A stretch of DNA of 64,000 nt, from the NCBI GenBank assembly GCA_963832745.1, contig CAWHVC010000001.1:224001-288000 (forward strand), in the 5' to 3' direction. A model generated the notes under the pieces. That model was not told where the DNA came from and ran no database searches. It saw only the letters and a program-made list of their open reading frames with translations. Made by a program: the position numbers and the translations under genes. Below, one piece after another: positions 1,244 to 35,038 of this stretch. The first letter of the stretch is position 1, and every line of letters begins with the position of its first letter. This DNA is from Candidatus Bathyarchaeota archaeon (lineage in GTDB: Archaea > Thermoproteota > Bathyarchaeia > Bathyarchaeales > Bathycorpusculaceae).

Positions 1244-1792
1244 ATGGAATTCAAAGCAGGAAAAGCAACAATCGAACTAATCAAAGGCGACATAACCGAC
1301 GTGCAAGCAGACGCCATCGTAAACGCCGCCAACGAGACACTTCTCGGTGGAGGTGGAGTGGACGGAGCCATCCATAGCAAAGGTGGAACAAAAATTTTAG
1401 AAGAATGCAAAAAAATACGGGCAACAACTTGGCCTGATGGGTTACCAATAGGGTACGCTGTGATTACTTCGGGCGGCAGCTTGAAGGCTAAGCATGTGAT
1501 TCATACAGTTGGGCCAGTGTGGCGTGGAGGTTTGCAGGGAGAAGCTGATCTGTTGAAGCAAGCGTATAGGAATTCGCTTAAGCTTGCTGTTGCCAATGGT
1601 CTTAAAACGGTTGCTTTTCCATCAATTAGCACAGGCGCGTACGGTTATCCTGTGGATGAAGCTAGCCGTGTAGCAGTTAAAACAATCAAGAATTTCCTTG
1701 AAAAAGAGGACAAACTTGACAGAGTAGTCATGGTATTGTTTTCTAAGCAAGCGTATGATGTTTACTTGTTCGCCGCAAAACAGATTTTTTAA
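1244..1792 (+). CDS. Macro domain protein (O-acetyl-ADP-ribose deacetylase, YmdB-like)
   Basis: GDIT, AIVNAAN, GGGVDGAIH, VIHTVGP and FPSISTGAYGYP motifs. Confidence 0.95.
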   Translation: MEFKAGKATIELIKGDITDVQADAIVNAANETLLGGGGVDGAIHSKGGTKILEECKKIRATTWPDGLPIGYAVITSGGSLKAKHVIHTVGPVWRGGLQGEADLLKQAYRNSLKLAVANGLKTVAFPSISTGAYGYPVDEASRVAVKTIKNFLEKEDKLDRVVMVLFSKQAYDVYLFAAKQIF

Positions 1793-1938
1793 ACAAATTT
1801 TTAAGCAATCATCCATGTGATGTATTAAAAAGCAAGCATAAAAACGCTGTTTTAGGCTTATTTTAAAAAATTTTTGTTCAGGTATCGAAAATGTTTTAAA
1901 CGAAAACGTACGATAACCATCCATTAGAGGAATCATCA

Positions 1939-2103
1939 ATGGCAAAATGCCCAGTTTGCGGAAAAGAAGTCAAAAACGCTAAGAAAACCTGGAAGATGGC
2001 AGGAAAACCAGACAAAAAAGGAAAGCGCACCCAGCTAACCATCGGTCTGTATGAATGCTGCGATAAAACTTTCAGGGAAGTTTTAGACAAGAAAAAAATC
2101 TAA
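1939..2103 (+). CDS. Small basic Cren7-like chromatin protein with a putative Zn site (54 aa, not in ORF track)
   Basis: Hand translation MAKCPVCGKEVKNAKKTWKMAGKPDKKGKRTQLTIGLYECCDKTFREVLDKKKI; GAGG upstream, T-tracts downstream; KxW...IGL(F/Y)...KxFR pattern as in Cren7. Confidence 0.75.
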   Translation: MAKCPVCGKEVKNAKKTWKMAGKPDKKGKRTQLTIGLYECCDKTFREVLDKKKI

Positions 2104-2210
2104 AACATTCCTTTAACCCTTTTTTTCCTTTTTTAAAAAACAAATTCTTTTTGCAACCCTTTTCTTCTTTACTTTAACACTGATTTTTAATATACTAATT
2201 GCGCTAAAAT

Positions 2211-2294
2211 AGCCGATACTGACCTACCCCCTAAAGGTTTCTGCATACCATTTCTACTAGGATCCAAATAGATTGGTATCGAGGTAGACTCCCC
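2211..2294 (+). repeat. Dispersed intergenic repeat, copy A
   Basis: GACCTACCCCCTAAAGGTTTCTGCATAC...CTACTAGGATCCAAATAG; similar to copies at ~20.6, 26.8 and 34.2 kb. Confidence 0.8.
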
Positions 2295-2733
2295 TGAGCT
2301 ATTCGTTTGCTGGCGTCTTCCAATATTTATACCCAGCATTAAATAAAAGAAAAAAGGCAAAGGCAAAATTTAAAAACTGAATCTGAAAAACAAAACATAC
2401 CTGTCAGCTCATAGATTTCAACAAACTGCAGAGATTTTTTACCGTGTTAATAGTTTTTGAATGCTGTGACTGTGAAGTTTAGTGGTATTCTTACCTTCCC
2501 CACTGGCATGATTCCGATGATAGTTTTTTGATAGAATGCAAAGTTGAAATTCAGATGCAAAGAAGGGTATATAGTAGCTTTTTCCGTACCCCTAAACTGT
2601 GCCGGTAATATATTCTGCAGCCACATTTGCCCAAAGATGATTGTCAAGATAAACGATTGTCACATCATTAGAATTGTAATGAGGAGTAAACCCAATTTTT
2701 TGGGAGAACCCTTAATGAAATGATTATTTCGGC

Positions 2734-2994
2734 TTAAGGGGTTAAATGTGTTTTCGTCAAACTTTCTTGACTAAGTCTTTTTGCAACATCATGTTTAACA
2801 TGTTTGCGCCATAGCCAAACAGTAATGGAAACTACAGATGAACCCGCCATTAGCAGACAGAAGGGTATTGACCCGAAACCGAACAGGGCGGTGCCGCACA
2901 ACGCGGCTACAGCTATGTCATCAAGGGGGCTAATTATGATTATCGCAAGTATCGTAGCTAGTAATGTGCCATATTTTTTCTTGTTTTTAATCAA
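2734..2994 (-). CDS. Small membrane protein
   Basis: Hydrophobic segments around SPLDD, basic tail. Confidence 0.6.
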   Translation of the reverse strand: MIKNKKKYGTLLATILAIIIISPLDDIAVAALCGTALFGFGSIPFCLLMAGSSVVSITVWLWRKHVKHDVAKRLSQESLTKTHLTP

Positions 2995-3012
2995 CAGAAT
3001 CCCAGCAGTTCC

Positions 3013-3258
3013 TTACGTTTTTTGAAACCCTAACAAATGGATAAAGGATAGGCATCCTTTGCAGTAAAGCACCACTTCGTTAAGGTTATTGTCGGTCATT
3101 AGTGTCTCGTAAATTACATAATTGTCTTCGGAATGGTCGTCAGGTGATATCGTTAAGCCGCAGTTTGGGCAGAAAAAAGCGCCGTTGCCGTCAGTTTGGG
3201 ATATGTCAAGTTTGTATGCTTTGACTTGTTTAGTTTTTTGCTTCATCTTATCCCTCAA
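3013..3258 (-). CDS. Small Zn-ribbon protein
   Basis: CPNC...CKGC, ISPDD motif. Confidence 0.7.
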   Translation of the reverse strand: MRDKMKQKTKQVKAYKLDISQTDGNGAFFCPNCGLTISPDDHSEDNYVIYETLMTDNNLNEVVLYCKGCLSFIHLLGFQKT

Positions 3259-3376
3259 TTTAAAGAGAGGCGCTAAAAAAGTTATTAAATAATTTTCAGA
3301 ATATTACCCAAATTAACCCCAAAAAGAAATACAGCCAAAAAAGGTTCACAGGTAACAAGTTTGCTGATAAGAAAAG

Positions 3377-3865
3377 TCAGGCTACTTGCTTGATTGCCCC
3401 GGCTTTTTGCAACATAATCCGCATAGTTACGCCAGCTACAACAAAAAAGACACCTACAATGATTAGAGCAAGACCGACAATACTTGGTATGCTGGGATAT
3501 GTTAAGGAATATTCTATTGTTTGTCCGTTTGTTGAGCTTAAATTGTTTATGATGACTGCGTATGAGCCAAAGGTTTGGGCGTTAAAGGAGAATTCTACAT
3601 TACTGTAAACTGTTCCACCATTGTAAATGACTTCATTTTGTGGATTTTCTACGTAAACGTTAATGCCTTCGTTTCCGTTAAGAACTGTTACTGCACCTTG
3701 AACTTTATCGCCTGCGCTCAACTCAAGTGGAACGGATAATCCGTCAGAAATGGGCAAGGTTACAGTGTGAGTTTGAGTGGTTGAAACCGTGTATGCAGCA
3801 ATCCCTGAAACCAAAATAGCGAGTCCGATGATTGTCAAGATTAAGCCTAATGTTCTTTTTTGCAT
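3377..3865 (-). CDS. Membrane-anchored protein with emp24/GOLD-like beta domain
   Basis: N- and C-terminal TM; INVYVENP...FSFNA...GSY pattern. Confidence 0.65.
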   Translation of the reverse strand: MQKRTLGLILTIIGLAILVSGIAAYTVSTTQTHTVTLPISDGLSVPLELSAGDKVQGAVTVLNGNEGINVYVENPQNEVIYNGGTVYSNVEFSFNAQTFGSYAVIINNLSSTNGQTIEYSLTYPSIPSIVGLALIIVGVFFVVAGVTMRIMLQKAGAIKQVA

Positions 3866-3982
3866 GATTATCGCTTCGTTTTTGTTTATAAGAGCATTCT
3901 TTTAAGCATTTTGTTACATAAAGGCAACCTTAAATCGAAAACAAAGCTCTTAAAGAATAAACTGCTATCTATCTTGACTGCC

Positions 3983-4330
3983 ATGTCAACCTCAAGTTGC
4001 CCAAAATGCGGAAAACAAGTGCCTGTAGACGCCACATTTTGTCCTCACTGCGGCTTGTTTTTTGCTCAACTTCAACCATTAGCTCAACCCTCGATGGCTA
4101 GGCAGAGAGTTAATACGCATACTTATGGGTGGATAATTATGGCTTTCCTTGTGTCGTTCTTGTGGTTTAAAATAAATAATGTGCTCCTGTTTCCGCTTGG
4201 TTTTATAGGTGGCTTAATTATCATGGGTTTCTCAGGGCATATTGACAAACAAGTTGGTAAGCCTTCCATGGTTATCCTTGGAGTTGCTTTATCGTTTGTG
4301 GGTATGATTATAGGTGCAATCATAAGGTAA
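3983..4330 (+). CDS. Zinc-ribbon membrane protein
   Basis: CPKCG...FCPHCG followed by 3 TM; start taken at the ATG of MSTSS rather than 3860. Confidence 0.75.
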   Translation: MSTSSCPKCGKQVPVDATFCPHCGLFFAQLQPLAQPSMARQRVNTHTYGWIIMAFLVSFLWFKINNVLLFPLGFIGGLIIMGFSGHIDKQVGKPSMVILGVALSFVGMIIGAIIR

Positions 4331-4434
4331 ATTGGCCCAAAAAAGAGTTTTTCAATCAAGCAAGCACTTGAACGCATGCAAAACTATTTTAGTTGATAAC
4401 AGAAAATAGTTAAGAATTAAGGAGTAAGGAGAAA

Positions 4435-4914
4435 TTGCAACTAAATTTGAACGGTTTCCTAGATGGATTGTCTAAAGAAAAGTATCTTGTTTATTTTCTG
4501 TTAGCTTGGGCAGGAGTGCTTTTCTTTTGGGGAATATCTGGTGTGTACTTTAATGTAACGGACCTAAGAAACGCTTATGACGGGATTATGATCCTCACTG
4601 ATTTGCTTGAAATAGGTGCAGGCGCAGTGCTAGCTGTAATCGCCGCCAAACTGTTAATGCCCAGTTTTATGCCAACCATGAAAAGAGAACCATTAGTAAT
4701 CTATTTCCTACTGTTATGGGCTGGCTCATTCTTCTTTAATGGAATAGCCAACATTGCATGGTTTGCACAGTACGGTGTTGACATAGATATCCTGGGTGCT
4801 TTATGCGCATTAGCTGCGGGTGCAGTATTGGCGCTGTTTGCATGGAAACTGCTACAATCACCTTCAGACAATTTAGCAGAAAAACTACGGCAACCAATAA
4901 GCCCAACAGTCTAA
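4435..4914 (+). CDS. Membrane protein with internal two-fold repeat
   Basis: YFLLAWAGVLFFWGI / YFLLLWAGSFFFNGI and GAGAVLA / AAGAVLA repeats; GGAG upstream. Confidence 0.8.
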   Translation: MQLNLNGFLDGLSKEKYLVYFLLAWAGVLFFWGISGVYFNVTDLRNAYDGIMILTDLLEIGAGAVLAVIAAKLLMPSFMPTMKREPLVIYFLLLWAGSFFFNGIANIAWFAQYGVDIDILGALCALAAGAVLALFAWKLLQSPSDNLAEKLRQPISPTV

Positions 4915-4961
4915 ACTCTTCTTTTTCTTTTCATTTTTTTTATCTTAAAATTTTTCTGAAT

Positions 4962-5348
4962 TCAAGGGTTTTCTGACAAAGCCTCTAAAGTGTTCCATAA
5001 CCGTTTGATAGCCTTCATGCCTTCTTTACGTGGAATCCCACCGTAAGCACGTGTAGATTCACTGAATTCCGTTTCAGGTAAATACGCTCGAGCGTCAGGA
5101 TAAAAACTTGGAGGAATATATGTTACCCAACCTTCCGTTTTTGCCAAAACCCCCTCTTCGGTGGGTACAAGAGTTACTTCAAAAAATTTTGAAGCCGAAA
5201 GAATGCCTCTACCCCAGCGGCCATAAACATAGTCAGAGGTGTTTATCAGGATTTTAACTTTGTTTTCGTGGAACCATTTCAGCAATACAGATTTAGCCTG
5301 CCCCACCGTGATGCCTTTGACGAGAATGTCTTTTGTTGTTCGACTCAT
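4962..5348 (-). CDS. Hypothetical protein
   Basis: 128-aa ORF with normal composition. Confidence 0.65.
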   Translation of the reverse strand: MSRTTKDILVKGITVGQAKSVLLKWFHENKVKILINTSDYVYGRWGRGILSASKFFEVTLVPTEEGVLAKTEGWVTYIPPSFYPDARAYLPETEFSESTRAYGGIPRKEGMKAIKRLWNTLEALSENP

Positions 5349-5425
5349 AAAGGTAACCGCTCACGCGTTTCACTATTTAACCCAGATGATTAAAAGCTTC
5401 GTTGATGAACTTGTTAGCGGTTTTT

Positions 5426-5620
5426 CTATTCTTCTTTGGGTTTTTGTGCTTGTGGATAAGTTACGGGGTCATTCACTGATGAGTAAACGTTAAAGAAACT
5501 TCTTTTGCCACATGCTGGACATTGAATATATTTAAGTGGACCAAGATGCACAAACGAATCAAGCGGCATATACGTGTACTCAAAAACGGCGCCACACTTT
5601 TTACATTTGAGCCGAGCCAT
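5426..5620 (-). CDS. Small Zn-finger protein
   Basis: CKKCG...CPACG. Confidence 0.75.
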   Translation of the reverse strand: MARLKCKKCGAVFEYTYMPLDSFVHLGPLKYIQCPACGKRSFFNVYSSVNDPVTYPQAQKPKEE

Positions 5621-5760
5621 ACAATCAAAGTCCCATGCTTTTCATTTGAAGGTTCTCCGTAAAATTTTAACATTTTCCCAAATTCTCAAAATGGTTTGGC
5701 ACTGCTAAAAAATACGCGCTGTTTTAGATAAAAAAAATAAAAGAGGAGTGTTTTACGTGT

Positions 5761-24353: not shown

Positions 24354-25643
24354 ATGTCAGAAAAATACGGTGAAATGTACAAAACCCTTGACATGAACAT
24401 AGAAAAACACGACCAACTCCTAAACATATTAGGCCAATACTACACTGCAGTTTATTTAAACCAAAAAAACAGACCTAAAAAAATGGATTATTTTGATTTC
24501 GTAGTCTCAGAAGTTCATGGGCTGCGAATCAAAGAATTAAACGATCTGCGAGCTCAAGGCAAAAAAGTGGTTGGAGCATTCTGCGTTTACGCGCCAGAAG
24601 AAATCGCCTACGCAGCCGACGCAAGCATGGTTGGCCTCTGTGGAGGCGCAGACTTTTCGGTTCCAGACGCGGAAACGGTAATCCCCCGAAACCTGTGCCC
24701 ACTAATCAAATCTTTCTACGGTTTCAGGCTAAACGGAACCTGTCCATATTTCCAATCAAGCGACCTCGTAGTCGGCGAAACCACTTGCGATGGCAAAAAG
24801 AAAGTCTATGAACTCTTAAACGACCTTATCCCAACATACGTAATTGAAATTCCACATAAACCGGATACCCAACGTGGTAAAGAGTTTTGGCTAAAAGAGG
24901 TTGAAGATTTCAAAACAGAAATAGAAAAATTAACAGGCAACAAAATTACAGAAGAAAAACTAAAAGCGGCAATCGAACTTATCAACAATAAACGTAAAGC
25001 TTTGCAGCGCTTGAACAGTTTACGCCAAAAAAAGCCAGCTCCAATCAGTGGATTAGATGCGCTCTTGATTAGTCAAATTAGCTTTAACGATGATCCTGTT
25101 CGTTTCACTGCAAAAGTCAATGAATTATGTGATGAGCTTGAAGAACGTGTCCGTAACAGTGTCGGTGTGGAATCTCCAGATGCGCCTCGTTTGATGGTTT
25201 CTGGTTGTCCCATGGCTATTCCTAACTGGAAGCTTCATAGCATCATCCAAGATTTAGGTGCTTCAGTTGTTGTTGAGGAAAGCTGTGTTGGCACACGGTA
25301 CTTTACTGATTTGGTTGAACCGAAAAGCGACAAGATGGAAGACCTGCTTTGGGCTATCGTTGAGAAATATAGTAAAATTCCCTGCGCATGCTTTACACCA
25401 AATGACAAAAGAATCGAAAATGTCAAGCAACTTGCCAAGGACCATGGAGTTGACGGCGTAATCTATTATACACTGCAGAACTGTCATGACTACAACGTGG
25501 AAGCAGTTAAAGTTGAACGCGCCTTAAAAGCAACAGATTTGCCTATGCTGAAAATTGAAACCGATTACACAATGGGTGATTCTGAACAAATAAAAACACG
25601 CGTTGAAGCTTTCCTTGAAATAATTCAAGGCAAAAAACAATAA
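24354..25643 (+). CDS. Double-cubane cluster protein / 2-hydroxyacyl-CoA dehydratase subunit D family
   Basis: FCVYAPEE, GLCGG, NLCPLIKS, CPYF, GETTCDGKKK, EESCVG, CACF, NCH, IETDY, TRVEAF. Confidence 0.9.
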   Translation: MSEKYGEMYKTLDMNIEKHDQLLNILGQYYTAVYLNQKNRPKKMDYFDFVVSEVHGLRIKELNDLRAQGKKVVGAFCVYAPEEIAYAADASMVGLCGGADFSVPDAETVIPRNLCPLIKSFYGFRLNGTCPYFQSSDLVVGETTCDGKKKVYELLNDLIPTYVIEIPHKPDTQRGKEFWLKEVEDFKTEIEKLTGNKITEEKLKAAIELINNKRKALQRLNSLRQKKPAPISGLDALLISQISFNDDPVRFTAKVNELCDELEERVRNSVGVESPDAPRLMVSGCPMAIPNWKLHSIIQDLGASVVVEESCVGTRYFTDLVEPKSDKMEDLLWAIVEKYSKIPCACFTPNDKRIENVKQLAKDHGVDGVIYYTLQNCHDYNVEAVKVERALKATDLPMLKIETDYTMGDSEQIKTRVEAFLEIIQGKKQ

Positions 25644-26730: not shown

Positions 26731-26781
26731 CTGGAGCCTTTCAAACAACCTTTTTTTAACTTGCTAATTGGGTGAAAAAGC

Positions 26782-26836
26782 GCCATTAGGACCTACCCCT
26801 CTTAGGTTTCTGCATACAACCTCTAATAGGCTCCAA
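26782..26836 (+). repeat. Dispersed intergenic repeat, copy C
   Basis: GACCTACCCCTCTTAGGTTTCTGCATAC...CTAATAGGCTCCAA. Confidence 0.75.
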
Positions 26837-26970
26837 TTTTGCGGCTATTTGTGATTTTGTTTTTCTATCGGTGGAGATTTTTGCGCTTGTATCATTTGGT
26901 ACTAAATTGTACAATATTGCATCAGATTTGTCGCAATCTATAAACACTAGTTTTTTCTTTAAACTTATTT

Positions 26971-27213
26971 GCAGGCTTGGGAGCAAGCTTTAGATGCAAT
27001 GCAGTGAGGCACAGAAGCGTGCTGATTAAAATCAGCGAAAAATCAGTGCGCGATTGAGACTTTGCCTCTTTGGGCTGAAATCGTTGCAGAATGTTGAATG
27101 CATCTAAGCCGTGAAGCGACAGATAAAGAAACGGCGATTAGAAGTCTGTTGCGTCGTCGAAGACACTGTTTAGGTGAGCCGTCTATCAACAATAAGGCTC
27201 AGACTAAGCCTGC
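26971..27213 (+). ncRNA. Candidate large structured non-coding RNA of unknown class
   Basis: Closing stem GCAGGCTTGG/CTAAGCCTGC plus at least 6 nested helices with G-U pairs on the + strand only; TATAAA at 26939-44; no ORF. Confidence 0.65.
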
Positions 27214-27501
27214 TCACAATTAGGAAGTGGATCAAAGAATTCAACCAAAAAGAGGTTTGAAGATTTTTGATATTCCACTTTTTTCTAATTTTATCAAAAT
27301 TTTGGAAATCGCAAGTTTTTTTAATCCACTTAGCCCTAACTTTTACTTAGGCCTTAAAAGAAATGAAAATTCCAAGTTCATATCTTTCCTTTGTTTTTCT
27401 TTGTTGGTATTAGCATTCTTTTTTGTTTTGCCTGTTCACGCATCTGTTTCTTGGAGAGTCATAATCGCTACTGTAATATCATTAGCTTTAGTTTGGAGAC
27501 A

Positions 27502-29485: not shown

Positions 29486-30970
29486 ATGCCTGCAAAGTTA
29501 GACCTTAATCATCTTTACGAAAGGTGCATGTCTGGAAACTCCAAGGATATGATTACTGCTCGAACAGTGTACAATTACTGCATCTCGCCTTTCATGGTGT
29601 ATTGTGATAAGTTCGGTCCAGAAGAAAAGAAAGACCCGCTTGATGAGTATGATAAACTATTATTTGAGCAAGGAAGAACTCATGAAAATGAAATAATTGC
29701 AGTTACCTACCCCGGATTGAAAAAAGTTCAATACGACAGTTTAGACGAAGGGTTCAAGCTTTTACTTTTTGAAATGCACAAAGGCGCATCTGTAATATGT
29801 GGCTTACCCGCATTTTATAAGCCCCAAGGAATTAGTGGCATCTTTGACATTTTAGAAAAAAGACTTGGCCAAAAATCCATATTCGGCAACTTCTTTTACG
29901 TTATAAAAGAAATTAAGTTGTCTCGAAACATACAAGGTCACCATGTATTTCAGGCGGCCTTTTACAATTATCTGCTTGGAAAAATTCAAGGATACACACC
30001 TGAAACGTTTTACCTAATAAATCGAGATAACAAAGAAATAGAACACACGTATCAAGAAACCGAGTTAATCAAAAAAATAAGCGACATCAAAGAAATATTA
30101 AAAGGCAAAAAAGTCAAACCGACCTACGGCGCTTGTTGTTGGCCTTGGGAAACCTACAACAACGAAGAGGCAATAAAAAGCAGGGACATATCGCTCGTAA
30201 GTGGAGTAGGTCCATCTTTCAAACAGAAGTTCATAGAAAATAACTTTTTAACTGTTGAAGACCTTGCCAAAGCATCATTGGCCGATTTAACTTCAATTAA
30301 AGGTATAGCAGATAAAACAGCCCGCAAGTTTCTAAATAATGCAAAAGCCCTTGCAGGAGGAAAGCATGCTTGTCTTGGGGCTTGTGTTTTTCCCAACAAG
30401 AATATCGAAATTTTCTTAGATTTGGAAGGCACGGGGGAGCAAATTCAGGAAGAAGAGTTAGTCGCAATTGATTACTTGATTGGCATAATAGTCAGGTCAA
30501 AAGAAAAAACAGAATACATTCCATTTGTGGCACATAGCCTAAAAGATGAAAAAACGATGTTTCAGAGATTTTTGAAATGGGTTCTTTCTCAAAATGACTA
30601 TGTTATTTATCATTGGCATAACTATGAAAAAACGCATATTCAACGATTAATTGACCGATATAATTTCGCAAAAGAAGCAGAACCAATACTTGCAAACATG
30701 CGCGACCTCTATAAAGACGCTACCGCAAACTTTGCGTTCCCCACTTATGGAAATGGGCTTAAACAAATTGCAGCTTACATTGGTTACAAATGGAAACATG
30801 CCGACGTAAACGCCATGGAATCAATCGCATTATACTTCCAATACATTCAAGACCAAACAAAAAACAAGGAAAAATTAGCGAAAGTTATTGATTACAACCA
30901 AGACGATTGCACCGCAACAATGCTGATAAAAGACTGGTTGGAGCAGGAATCAAAAAACATTAAAGAATAA
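29486..30970 (+). CDS. TM0106-family RecB-like nuclease with HhH and RNase H-like domains
   Basis: G.FDILEK..EIK, QAAFY, GVGP/GIADK HhH, FLDLE, YHW..YE, LKQIA, YNQDD. Confidence 0.88.
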   Translation: MPAKLDLNHLYERCMSGNSKDMITARTVYNYCISPFMVYCDKFGPEEKKDPLDEYDKLLFEQGRTHENEIIAVTYPGLKKVQYDSLDEGFKLLLFEMHKGASVICGLPAFYKPQGISGIFDILEKRLGQKSIFGNFFYVIKEIKLSRNIQGHHVFQAAFYNYLLGKIQGYTPETFYLINRDNKEIEHTYQETELIKKISDIKEILKGKKVKPTYGACCWPWETYNNEEAIKSRDISLVSGVGPSFKQKFIENNFLTVEDLAKASLADLTSIKGIADKTARKFLNNAKALAGGKHACLGACVFPNKNIEIFLDLEGTGEQIQEEELVAIDYLIGIIVRSKEKTEYIPFVAHSLKDEKTMFQRFLKWVLSQNDYVIYHWHNYEKTHIQRLIDRYNFAKEAEPILANMRDLYKDATANFAFPTYGNGLKQIAAYIGYKWKHADVNAMESIALYFQYIQDQTKNKEKLAKVIDYNQDDCTATMLIKDWLEQESKNIKE

Positions 30971-34719: not shown

Positions 34720-35038
34720 TGGGCTGGCGAGTTGGTGTGTGGCTTTCGGATCCAGTTTACTGGGTCTGAGGAAACTCCGCCCACACGTAGAATTGCAGCA
34801 CCTCTCGGGTGCAAGGTGAGAACCTTGGCAACGGAGCAGAAACGACACGTCCAACCAGAGCTTAACGGATGAGGCACCATAAAATGCCGACCATGCTGGT
34901 TTGGAAGCGGTGAAACGGCCGTCCTGCAAGTGGAAAGGGCAAACAGTCGCTGATGACCCTCTACAGGAGGCGCGGGTAGCCCGATTAGCCGAATGCCACT
35001 TAAACAAAAGGCGGGTTACATCCAACACACCACGCCCA
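34720..35038 (+). ncRNA. rnpB: Archaeal RNase P RNA
   Basis: CR-I GAGGAAACTCCGCCC, CR-II GCAGAAAC, CR-III GGTGAAACGGC, CR-V AACAAAAGGCGGGTTA; complementary ends; TATA-like box about 25 nt upstream. Confidence 0.95.

Follow-up and report, generated by a model that had tools for sequence, protein, structure and literature searches.

A stand-alone RNA gene of Bathyarchaeia whose abundant product is a 216-nt circular RNA with two tandem pseudoknotted modules

In Thermoproteus, a TATA-driven gene with a 23-nt leader gives rise, through a motif formed by leader and trailer and the action of the splicing endonuclease and the ligase RtcB, to a functional circular signal recognition particle (SRP) RNA (PMC4731332, in part). 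Archaeal precursors of 16S and 23S rRNA (pre-rRNAs) go through circular intermediates via this pathway (PMC7714728 and PMC12918454, both in part), and rRNA circularisation has been reported for Bathyarchaeia (PMC12918454, in part). Small circles have also been described in Sulfolobus and Pyrococcus among C/D-box small RNAs (sRNAs) and other non-coding RNAs (ncRNAs), most of the circular C/D RNAs having few permuted reads (PMC3326292, in part). Here we analyse a stretch of 64,000 nt, hereafter the window, from a Candidatus Bathyarchaeota archaeon (assembly GCA_963832745.1, contig CAWHVC010000001.1, positions 224,001 to 288,000 of the forward strand), the genome of which comprises 3.02 Mb in 5 contigs and is 99% complete. 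The window contains an RNA gene, at 26930-27284, that is an independent transcription unit and not a leader. It gives rise to a stable and abundant RNA, a covalently closed circle of 216 nt. Taking all the evidence together, we consider it likely that this independent gene yields a precursor which is cut at a bulge-helix-bulge motif to release a circle of two modules; that the circle would serve as a stable protein-binding scaffold is our best guess at its role.

Like the Thermoproteus SRP RNA gene (PMC4731332, in part), this locus would be a stand-alone TATA gene whose leader/trailer motif is handled by endonuclease and RtcB to leave a stable circle. The Thermoproteus payload, however, is a rearranged universal RNA of known function, whereas the payload here belongs to no family and comes as one to three repeats. 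Motif geometry, enzymes and circular products are likewise shared with pre-16S/23S rRNAs and tRNA introns (PMC7714728 and PMC12918454, both in part), but the circles of those RNAs are intermediates or by-products, while here it is the circle that is conserved and abundant, and leader and trailer appear to serve only stem formation. With the circular C/D-box sRNAs and ncRNAs (PMC3326292, in part) the RNA has in common that it is a small archaeal circle and, probably, the tandem G-A chemistry of kink-turns (K-turns); unlike them it lacks a terminal pairing of C box (RUGAUGA) with D box and guide regions, is considerably longer (106-289 nt), and has a defined bulge-helix-bulge site and a circle that is apparently the dominant form. 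The biogenesis is thus of a known kind and the payload a new modular fold outside every Rfam family. We found no description of this RNA in the published literature, of which the supplements could hold unlabelled instances.

The circle was seen in assembled contigs, not raw reads; contigs carry no information on strand, exact 5' and 3' ends, true abundance or the start of transcription. Among 20 listed runs containing part of the stretch, 14 are recorded as RNA, and four RNA runs from four studies (X3, X4, X5 and X8; riverine, soil, a coded organism and sediment) were compared over 26800-27400. The features on which the argument turns are the following.

26987-27202 (+): mature RNA, a 216-nt covalently closed circle, defined by contig cover and by the joint in RNA runs
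26971-26980 (+): 5' arm of the outer helix of the processing stem, pairing with 27204-27213; removed, and uncovered by window-strain RNA contigs
27204-27213 (+): 3' arm of the same outer helix, pairing with 26971-26980; removed
26981-26987 (+): 5' strand of the motif, GAGC at 26981-26984 and the bulge AAG at 26985-26987, cut at 26986/26987
27197-27203 (+): 3' strand of the motif, GCUC at 27197-27200 and the bulge AGA at 27201-27203, cut at 27202/27203

Contig depth was zero at 26800-26967 and at 27220-27400 in all four RNA runs, an internal contrast only and not proof that precursor or trailer was never present; interior depth was 5 in X3, about 1300-5700 in X4, 520-2500 in X5 and 154-386 in X8. 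The original prediction, which had been made from the letters of the window, described a structured RNA at this place and named metatranscriptome coverage and ends as one way to check it: the locus is transcribed, and RNA cover starts at 26987, stops at 27202 and is confined to that interval. These two positions are joined, 27202 to 26987, in contigs of X3, X4 and X5, with zero shared or inserted letters at the joint. Some contigs have loose ends in which the opposite end of the circle is read, confirming the joint: ...CAATAAGGCTCAG ahead of 26987 in X4, X5 and X8, and, in one case in X4, GCTTTAGATGCA after 27202. The joint-bearing contig had a depth of 289.7 in X4 and 139.8 in X5, against 240-335 and 112-237, respectively, for perfectly matching internal contigs. 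In X8 a contig of a relative carries leader, stem and RNA at a depth of 14.4 as compared with 154.4 for the circle, about one-tenth, as expected of a minor precursor. The silent flanks argue against carry-over of DNA into the RNA runs.

Conservation was assessed chiefly on two alignments, A1 with 25 genus-level homologs and A4 with 26 one-module homologs from several orders, the latter made with structure-blind MAFFT. The 10-bp helix that had been predicted to close a linear RNA of about 243 nt is real: in the genus-level homologs 95.6% of its cells pair, and both partners have changed at 8 of its 10 pairs. Because the cuts fall symmetrically within its bulge-helix-bulge motif, it is to be read as a processing stem that is removed and discarded, and the product is the 216-nt circle instead. 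Both cuts lie after the second bulge nucleotide. A bulge-helix-bulge consists of a 4-bp helix flanked by two 3-nt bulges (PMC7714728, and likewise PMC4731332, both in part), and the locus has this arrangement, with the bulges on opposite strands. The central helix GAGC/GCUC pairs without exception, in 104 of 104 cells of A4 and 100% of those of A1, with only G:C/G:U/A:U and C:G/U:G alternation, and the pattern RRGY-ANG ... GCUY-AGA, in which the 5' bulge is A-N-G and the 3' strand GCUYAGA, recurs in nearly all of 81 non-redundant homologs. A K-turn on top of the closing helix (GGAGC/GCUCAGAC) had been considered and was replaced by the bulge-helix-bulge reading after the RNA ends had been seen.

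The genome holds two tRNA_int_endo genes (PF01974; 190 and 192 aa, 102.8 and 72.7 bits) and one RtcB gene (PF01139; 582.6 bits). By analogy with the established pathway, the cuts would be made by the tRNA-splicing endonuclease, presumably a heterotetramer since two subunit genes are present, and the ends would be joined by RtcB; heteromeric (alpha-beta)2 endonucleases of TACK archaea tolerate relaxed motifs (PMC7714728, in part). A self-cleaving ribozyme, which had been offered as an option, is unnecessary because protein enzymes explain the ends, and nothing points to self-cleavage. The single 16S rRNA gene of the organism (C5:524515-526004) is flanked by a perfect 20-bp stem, some 124 nt ahead of the gene and 55 nt past it, with a motif resembling that of the RNA locus (GAGU/ACUC, bulges GGA and AGG), and a circular pre-16S intermediate is predicted on that basis. 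Early genome-wide scans for the motif gave mostly noise, and a "16S-sized" candidate at C5:327743-329240 is not rRNA.

The fold that the alignments support comprises these elements.

26987-26992 (+): 5' arm of the junction hairpin, GCUUUA, pairing in the circle with UAAGGC at 27193-27198; the ligation junction lies in the UCAG loop at 27199-27202
26996-27001/27082-27087 (+): outer helix of module 1 (module 26996-27087), 98.4% paired
27006-27011/27063-27068 (+): stem A of module 1, 94.6% paired
27012-27016/27052-27062 (+): asymmetric GA-rich, K-turn-like internal loop of module 1
27017-27027/27041-27051 (+): stem B of module 1, 93.8% paired
27028-27040 (+): A-rich loop of module 1, 13 nt
27033-27036 with 27074-27077 (+): pseudoknot of module 1, CAGC/GCUG, 99% paired and nearly invariant in the genus
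27092-27097/27186-27191 (+): outer helix of module 2 (module 27092-27191), about 82% paired, with compensatory changes
27101-27109/27168-27176 (+): stem A of module 2, 92% paired, 7 of 9 pairs changed on both sides
27110-27115/27153-27167 (+): K-turn-like loop of module 2
27116-27124/27144-27152 (+): stem B of module 2, 88.4% paired
27125-27143 (+): loop of module 2
27131-27135 with 27178-27182 (+): pseudoknot of module 2, ACGGC/GCCGU, 87.6% paired, 4 of 5 pairs changed on both sides

Covariation, which had also been suggested as a check, is strong on both A1 and A4. In A4, 89.9% of cells pair as compared with 75.4% in shuffles, not one of 500 of which reached the observed value; slid controls give 28-45%. 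Both partners have changed at 36 of 48 pairs. The junction helix is 86.3% paired in this alignment, with 8 of its 11 pairs changed on both sides; in other families (alignment A2) the junction hairpin shows compensatory changes from U:A to C:G at two positions and from A:U to G:C at one, and its loop reads UYAG across homologs. The pseudoknot of the one-module form is 90% paired in A4, G:C being replaced by A:U in 5 of 26 sequences.

A set of nested helices had been predicted, but the two halves of the RNA are, as judged from the alignments, tandem homologous modules. Each has a 6-bp outer helix, a stem A, a GA-rich internal loop (NNGA on the 5' strand and G-A-Y-A-A-A-G-A-C-N-N on the 3' strand), a stem B of 9-11 bp and an A-rich loop of 13-19 nt, in which four or five bases (C-R-G-C; loop AAAC-R-GC...) pair with GGGCYG following stem A. 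This pseudoknot differs in a compensatory manner between the modules of one and the same RNA, being CAGC/GCUG in the first and CGGC/GCCG in the second. The invariant unpaired letters of each module are GA...AAAGAC, GGGC and the A-rich loop.

Five of nine pairings proposed for the RNA were borne out by the genus-level homologs, while four turned out not to be the conserved pairing. Besides the closing helix, GAGGCA/TGCCTC (94.6% paired), GCGTGCTGATT/AATCAGTGCGC (93.8%, 9 of 11 pairs changed) and GCGACAGAT/GTCTGTTGC (88.4%) stand as predicted, and TGTTGA/TCAACA does pair (about 82%, with compensatory changes) but is nested rather than a pseudoknot, as had been thought possible. For GCTTTAGATGCA/TGCATCTAAGC pairing reaches just 77.5%, five positions being unpaired in 9-19 sequences; its 3' arm pairs downstream with GTTTAGGTG (92%, 7 of 9 pairs changed on both sides); for TGCAGT/GTTGCA, 78.7% paired, the alternative register GCAATG/CGTTGC reaches 98.4%. 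TGAGCC/GGCTCA, although 91.9% paired, has no double changes and competes with both the 100%-paired 4-bp motif helix and the second pseudoknot. Finally, ACGGC is paired with the GCCGT at 27108 in 65.5% of cells and with the GCCGT at 27178 in 87.6%, 4 of 5 pairs of the latter helix being changed on both sides.

The strands of the GA-rich loop are arranged as in a kink-turn, with G-A next to stem B and G-A opposite. Immediately ahead of stem B, the one-module alignment shows no variation at G44 and G46 and keeps A45 in at least 90% of sequences; on the opposite strand A87 never varies and G86 occurs in 23 of 26. These letters (G44-G46 and G86-A87) are compatible with G-A/A-G pairs, non-canonical pairs being something that sequence alone cannot demonstrate. 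A kink-turn has a 3-nt bulge, and here 6 nt (G-A-Y-A-A-A) separate stem B from the GA, which is why we call the loop K-turn-like only. We infer that it forms a kink which folds stem B back so that the pseudoknot between loop and bulge can form, and this putative kink would, in an archaeon, probably be bound by L7Ae.

The RNA is framed by signals of its own, upstream and downstream of the processing stem.

26930-26944 (+): archaeal promoter, with GTCGCAA resembling a TFB recognition element (BRE) at 26930-26936 and then TATAAA at 26939-26944, about 27-32 nt ahead of the processing stem
27225-27284 (+): trailer hairpin AAGUGGA...UCCACUU with a six-T run at 27279-27284, a probable terminator; kept in the genus only, no RNA contig depth

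The TATAAA had been placed about 30 nt upstream, and it was found 27 nt ahead of the first base of the closing helix. Nearly all homologs share an upstream block, GTC(G/A)CAAAA and then letters resembling TTTATA, and a TATA-like hexamer occurs at -42 to -19 (mode -29) in 50 of 80 loci, as compared with 9 of 80 at the control positions -70 to -47. On the other side, GTGGAA...TCCACTTTT is found in the downstream flanks of most genus loci, 48 of 80 loci have four or more T within 50 nt downstream, and in lineages outside the genus a T-run lies a few bases past the stem. Trailer hairpin and T-run together probably constitute a transcription terminator.

In the window, the RNA gene has SelD on the same strand on one side and a convergent CxxCxxCC-domain gene on the other; the downstream gene is on the opposite strand here and in about half of 26 genus loci, and neighbour genes vary among genus members. 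A riboswitch or cis-acting leader would lie in the 5' untranslated region of recurrent co-oriented genes, which is not the case for this RNA, with its own promoter and T-run and its excision as a circle. Because of this gene anatomy, with variable or convergent neighbours, we exclude a cis-regulatory role for the locus and infer that the circle has none. The gene upstream is a genuine SelD, scoring 315.6 bits with NF010705 (cut-off 291), and the earlier view that any link with selenium is only positional agrees with the variation of neighbours among relatives. A selenium link was rejected, the SelD neighbour being non-recurrent and an AIRS-domain neighbour in another family being HypE, which is unrelated; so was a link with cobalamin (CbiM and CobD near some copies), which is non-recurrent and has inconsistent gene orientations. 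Immediately upstream of selD lies a gene for the D component of a 2-hydroxyglutaryl-CoA dehydratase (window 24354-25643), and a 494-aa protein encoded at 29486-30970 has RNase_H_2, helix-hairpin-helix and weak Cas4-like matches. An intergenic repeat of about 55-70 nt (GCCATTAGGACCTACCCCTCTTAGGTTTCTGCATACAACCTCTAATAGGCTCC-like), probably a miniature inverted-repeat transposable element (MITE) or an element like the repetitive extragenic palindromes (REP), occurs in at least 40 genome copies of 75-93% identity on both strands, one of them at 26781-26838, just upstream of the promoter region of the RNA gene.

That the locus encodes a structured RNA was correctly predicted, and the candidate stands far beyond chance. 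The + strand folds at -83.2 kcal/mol (z -2.72; 1 of 200 shuffles equally good) and the - strand less well, at -68.0 kcal/mol (z -1.73; 8 of 200). All strings quoted in the original prediction are present where it put them in the window, and its statement that no open reading frame (ORF) covers the region needs only a minor correction, as short ORFs of 40-66 aa do overlap it and nothing longer does. At gathering score Rfam has no match at the locus, the sole such match in the 64 kb being the archaeal RNase P RNA (RF00373, window 34727-35030, 185.1 bits), and so the suggested cmscan check left the RNA without a family. A permissive scan of 26750-27400 (E<=10) returned five matches with E 2.6-9.8, the best at 21.8 bits against a threshold of 50, and eight one-module relatives gave nothing relevant in Rfam at gathering or permissive thresholds. 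ARAGORN found no tRNA or transfer-messenger RNA (tmRNA) at the locus. On a different contig from the locus the source genome carries an ordinary SRP RNA (155.9 bits), and it also has two genes for 5S rRNA; since normal genes for SRP RNA, RNase P RNA and 5S rRNA are found elsewhere in the genome, the candidate is none of these. The prediction of a stand-alone structured ncRNA that is not SRP RNA, RNase P RNA or tRNA is therefore upheld.

Other identities were likewise set aside. 5S rRNA and tmRNA were rejected given the 5S genes elsewhere and the negative ARAGORN scan, and a permuted version of a known RNA was rejected given the canonical SRP, RNase P and 5S genes in the same genome and a local cmscan free of partial matches. 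A MITE or other dispersed repeat, which had been named as an outcome that would speak against the prediction, does not fit a gene with one copy in 3.02 Mb and an inverted repeat that covaries as an RNA helix, G-U pairs included.

Homologs were sought with BLASTN and with two covariance models, R1 built from the 25 genus sequences and R2 representing a single module. By BLASTN the element is present in 23 of 36 other genus genomes and in 0 of 24 genomes from other families of the order. R1 detects a homolog in 96 of 120 genomes of the genus (64 of 73 among those at least 90% complete), in 75 of 151 genomes of the order, where the families with matches score 33/34, 19/35, 15/35, 4/4, 2/25 and 1/3 and six small families have no match, and in 26 of 151 genomes of the class Bathyarchaeia. 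R2 matches 28 of 151 class genomes and, in a phylum-wide sample, 8 of 151, all eight within Bathyarchaeia; it has no match in about 131 genomes of other classes. The search for homologs across archaeal genomes that had been proposed thus shows an RNA conserved across genus, order and class Bathyarchaeia. A genome-wide pattern scan was too loose to be of use, only 2 of 80 listed loci being real by R1, both in Candidatus Bathyarchaeia. Relatives have 1-5 model matches per genome, counted as copies or as separate modules.

Module number varies among the 81 non-redundant homologs, with one module in 15, two in 64 and three in 2, and the predicted circles measure 106-115, 181-216 and 289 nt, respectively. 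R2 matches the tandem modules of relatives separately, including all three of the 320-nt form, and in multi-module relatives the modules are joined via their outer helices and not via motif sequences. Three-module genes (320 nt, predicted 289-nt circle) are seen at L023:1290-1609 (= L211:1501-1820) in a genus member and at L169:6874-7193 in a public Bathyarchaeia record. The form seen in other orders is the one-module form, which is probably ancestral.

We propose the following course of events. The BRE/TATA promoter drives a precursor in which a leader of about 19 nt and the trailer form the 10-bp stem; this precursor is cut at 26986/26987 and 27202/27203, in all probability by the splicing endonuclease, and the excised piece is joined end to end, presumably by RtcB. 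The circle folds into a rod, the junction hairpin being followed by the two modules, each with outer helix and stem A stacked. Our best guess is that it would act, safe from exonucleases, as a scaffold or decoy with one protein (or ligand) bound to each module. The idea of a scaffold or decoy derives from the presence of repeated, independently folded modules on an exonuclease-proof backbone. We give the binding of one partner per module somewhat less than an even chance, a lesser share of which falls to the version with a nuclease-fold partner, the best candidate being a protein of about 215 aa with a PD-(D/E)xK fold.

Several points weigh against this proposal. The function assigned to the circle is a guess. 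The depths are sums over contigs and include the RNAs of relatives, and the absence of the joint from DNA is argued from the single-copy gene and the silent flanks, not shown. In the canonical hBHBh' register the inner helix would have 3 bp only (C-G, U-A, U-A), as compared with an outer helix of 10 bp that covaries; the inner register that covaries, GCUUUA/UAAGGC, is shifted by one and appears to be that of the ligated hairpin. The K-turn assignment fails one defining feature by virtue of the 6-nt bulge. As for the candidate partner, its link with the RNA is one of gene order, with the two genes unlinked in the genus of the window, and the protein occurs in 50 class genomes in which the RNA was not detected as well.

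The gene for this protein and the RNA gene are divergent neighbours in 20 of 40 loci sampled outside the genus, and these 20 span several orders; the protein gene is on the opposite strand, some 55-520 nt upstream of the RNA gene. The protein is present in 74 of 151 class genomes and in 24 of the 26 that have the RNA, the remaining two being 85% and 68% complete. It matches no Pfam, NCBIfam or PADLOC family and has no sequence relative in the PDB. Across orders it is strongly conserved (55% mean column identity, 59 invariant columns), with invariant residues that include KINHS, SCD, E-x-E-T, PP-H, SKI-RYS, CD-YY and NA-H in alignment A5. An AlphaFold model (predicted local distance difference test score, pLDDT, 92.2) gave weak Foldseek matches, the best with E 2e-3, mostly to nucleases of the PD-(D/E)xK type (XisH, Cas4 SSO0001, SfsA, Bax1, HindIII and NucS), and its Atlas neighbours are hypothetical proteins of Bathyarchaeota. 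The protein appears specific to Bathyarchaeia. An ATP-dependent DNA ligase gene converges on the 3' end of the RNA in 14 of 40 non-genus loci, and the protein gene adjoins the DNA ligase gene in 14 of 40 loci. The gene order is suggestive of a functional pairing of RNA and protein, and is equally compatible with a conserved core gene order. The ortholog in the source genome (C4:66580-67200; L236:1462-2133, - strand) has no such RNA beside it. A copy of the dispersed intergenic repeat adjoins this protein gene, and an element of about 60 nt common to the window and the protein locus, which is that repeat, was rejected as a link between the two.

Tandem pseudoknot RNAs are the antitoxins of type III toxin-antitoxin systems, in which ToxI RNAs consist of tandem pseudoknotted repeats beside the gene for a nuclease-like protein, are co-transcribed with it and are processed by the partner protein. 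The RNA could by the same token be the specific partner of the PD-(D/E)xK-fold protein, either as a ToxI-like inhibitor or as a guide or activator of the nuclease. The tandem pseudoknotted repeats, the head-to-head genes and the joint occurrence in 24 of 26 genomes speak for this, as does the finding that other stem-flanked, rod-like RNAs hold the same position in lineages where the RNA was not detected. Yet the strong conservation of the protein, its single copy and its apparently vertical inheritance set it apart from typical toxin-antitoxin pairs; PADLOC assigns it to no defence family; the genes are unlinked in the genus of the window; and the order may be core synteny, given the neighbouring DNA ligase gene. 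Here, unlike in ToxI systems, the genes are divergent, the protein has another fold and is conserved vertically across orders, and processing would be by endonuclease. We regard a specific partnership of this kind as unlikely, if the strongest of the rivals.

The circle could also be merely an intermediate of processing, the working RNA being a re-opened linear form, as circles are in the maturation of archaeal 16S and 23S rRNA (PMC7714728 and PMC12918454, both in part), and contigs cannot exclude a linear population. However, in X4 and X5 the depth of joint-bearing contigs is close to that of internal ones, no second pair of ends was seen in the four runs, and the junction lies in a conserved 4-nt loop that caps a covarying helix, which suggests selection on the closed form. 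An intermediate therefore seems to us improbable.

Slightly less probable still is that each module is an aptamer or ribozyme and the circle a sensor or catalyst acting in trans. There are many invariant unpaired nucleotides in every module, and one to three modules recall tandem aptamers. The layout of kink plus pseudoknot recalls riboswitch aptamers such as SAM-I, in which a GA-rich bend lets the apical loop pair back with a lower single-stranded segment. Unlike aptamers of the SAM-I type, though, the RNA has no sequence or model similarity to them, is not cis-regulatory, has a 6-nt kink bulge, is circular and repeats its modules; there is no cis-regulated gene, promoter and terminator are its own and the neighbours convergent or variable, no riboswitch or ribozyme model matches, and protein enzymes explain the ends.

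The linear RNA of about 243 nt with ends held by the 10-bp helix, as originally predicted, now has very little in its favour: the closing helix is real and covaries, and the precursor of a relative was seen at low depth in X8, but 26971-26986 and 27203-27213 are uncovered by window-strain contigs in four runs in which the interior reaches hundreds to thousands, and the interior ends are found joined. Least probable of all is an artefact of the junction (an assembly error, a tandem DNA duplication, a MITE or a viroid-like replicon), for although the evidence is at contig level and from RNA runs only, relatives have 1-5 matches per genome and the termini form inverted repeats, one and the same junction recurs in three to four independent studies and lies exactly symmetrically in a conserved motif, the gene is DNA-encoded, single-copy and equipped with a conserved promoter, its flanks have zero depth in the RNA runs, the modules of multi-module relatives are joined via outer helices, and no viral contig matched the specific motif pattern.

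A second gene of like design is found in the source genome at C3:80404-80551 (L234:1005-1152). It has a TATA-like box, an outer stem paired at 10 of 10 bp, the motif GAAC/GUUU and the bulges ACG and AGA, and its payload of 121 nt is rod-like, unrelated to the RNA studied here and without an Rfam match. A payload akin to it occurs in a relative as two genes back to back on the - strand (L230:1354-1502 and 1503-1647). Beside these tandem genes lies a sub-threshold match to tmRNA (L230:1753-1875, +; 25.2 bits against a gathering score of 47); tmRNA is not known from archaea, and the match probably reflects chance or a tRNA-like fold. The same conserved stem, with the motif GRRGYANGC ... RGGCUUAGAC, flanks at least three more types of payload, 125-170 nt in length (L245:1210-1365, L239:1253-1409, L246:1268-1424, L248:1055-1211, L251:2355-2500, L247:2328-2493, L228:1501-1667 and L229:1501-1666). 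L229 aside, most of them adjoin the 215-aa protein gene in head-to-head orientation, in families where no copy of the studied RNA was detected. Such stem-flanked rod-like RNAs beside the protein gene were found at 4 of 16 loci by R2 with E<=0.001 (L245, L239, L248 and L251), and further ones are one with an R2 E of 0.97, L247 by motif scan and L228.

It is possible, and we offer this tentatively, that Bathyarchaeia have dedicated circular-RNA genes with an exchangeable payload, the studied RNA being a subunit or regulator of a ribonucleoprotein with the PD-(D/E)xK-fold protein. If so, the cassette of strong promoter, stem and conserved motif would be a natural counterpart of the engineered tRNA-intron systems for circular-RNA expression, the family studied here would be the most widespread payload and a new class of abundant RNA with one to three modules of kink plus pseudoknot, and C3:80404-80551 and the protein-adjacent RNAs would be other payloads.

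Bathyarchaeia are among the most abundant uncultured archaea of sediments and soils, and to the best of our knowledge almost nothing is known of their RNA biology. The RNA described here is present in most genomes of several Bathyarchaeia lineages and reaches a depth sufficient for assembly in metatranscriptomes from four unrelated studies. Its gene seems to serve nothing but the making of the circle. The RNA adds a large class of structured ncRNA to those, few in number, known from archaea, and is a natural example of a genetically encoded circular-RNA expression cassette, the sole precedent that we found for such a gene being the rearranged SRP RNA of Thermoproteus. It also serves as a warning that DNA-encoded archaeal circles can resemble viroid-like replicons in metatranscriptome surveys, and it offers a concrete, testable pairing of an RNA with an uncharacterised nuclease-fold protein.

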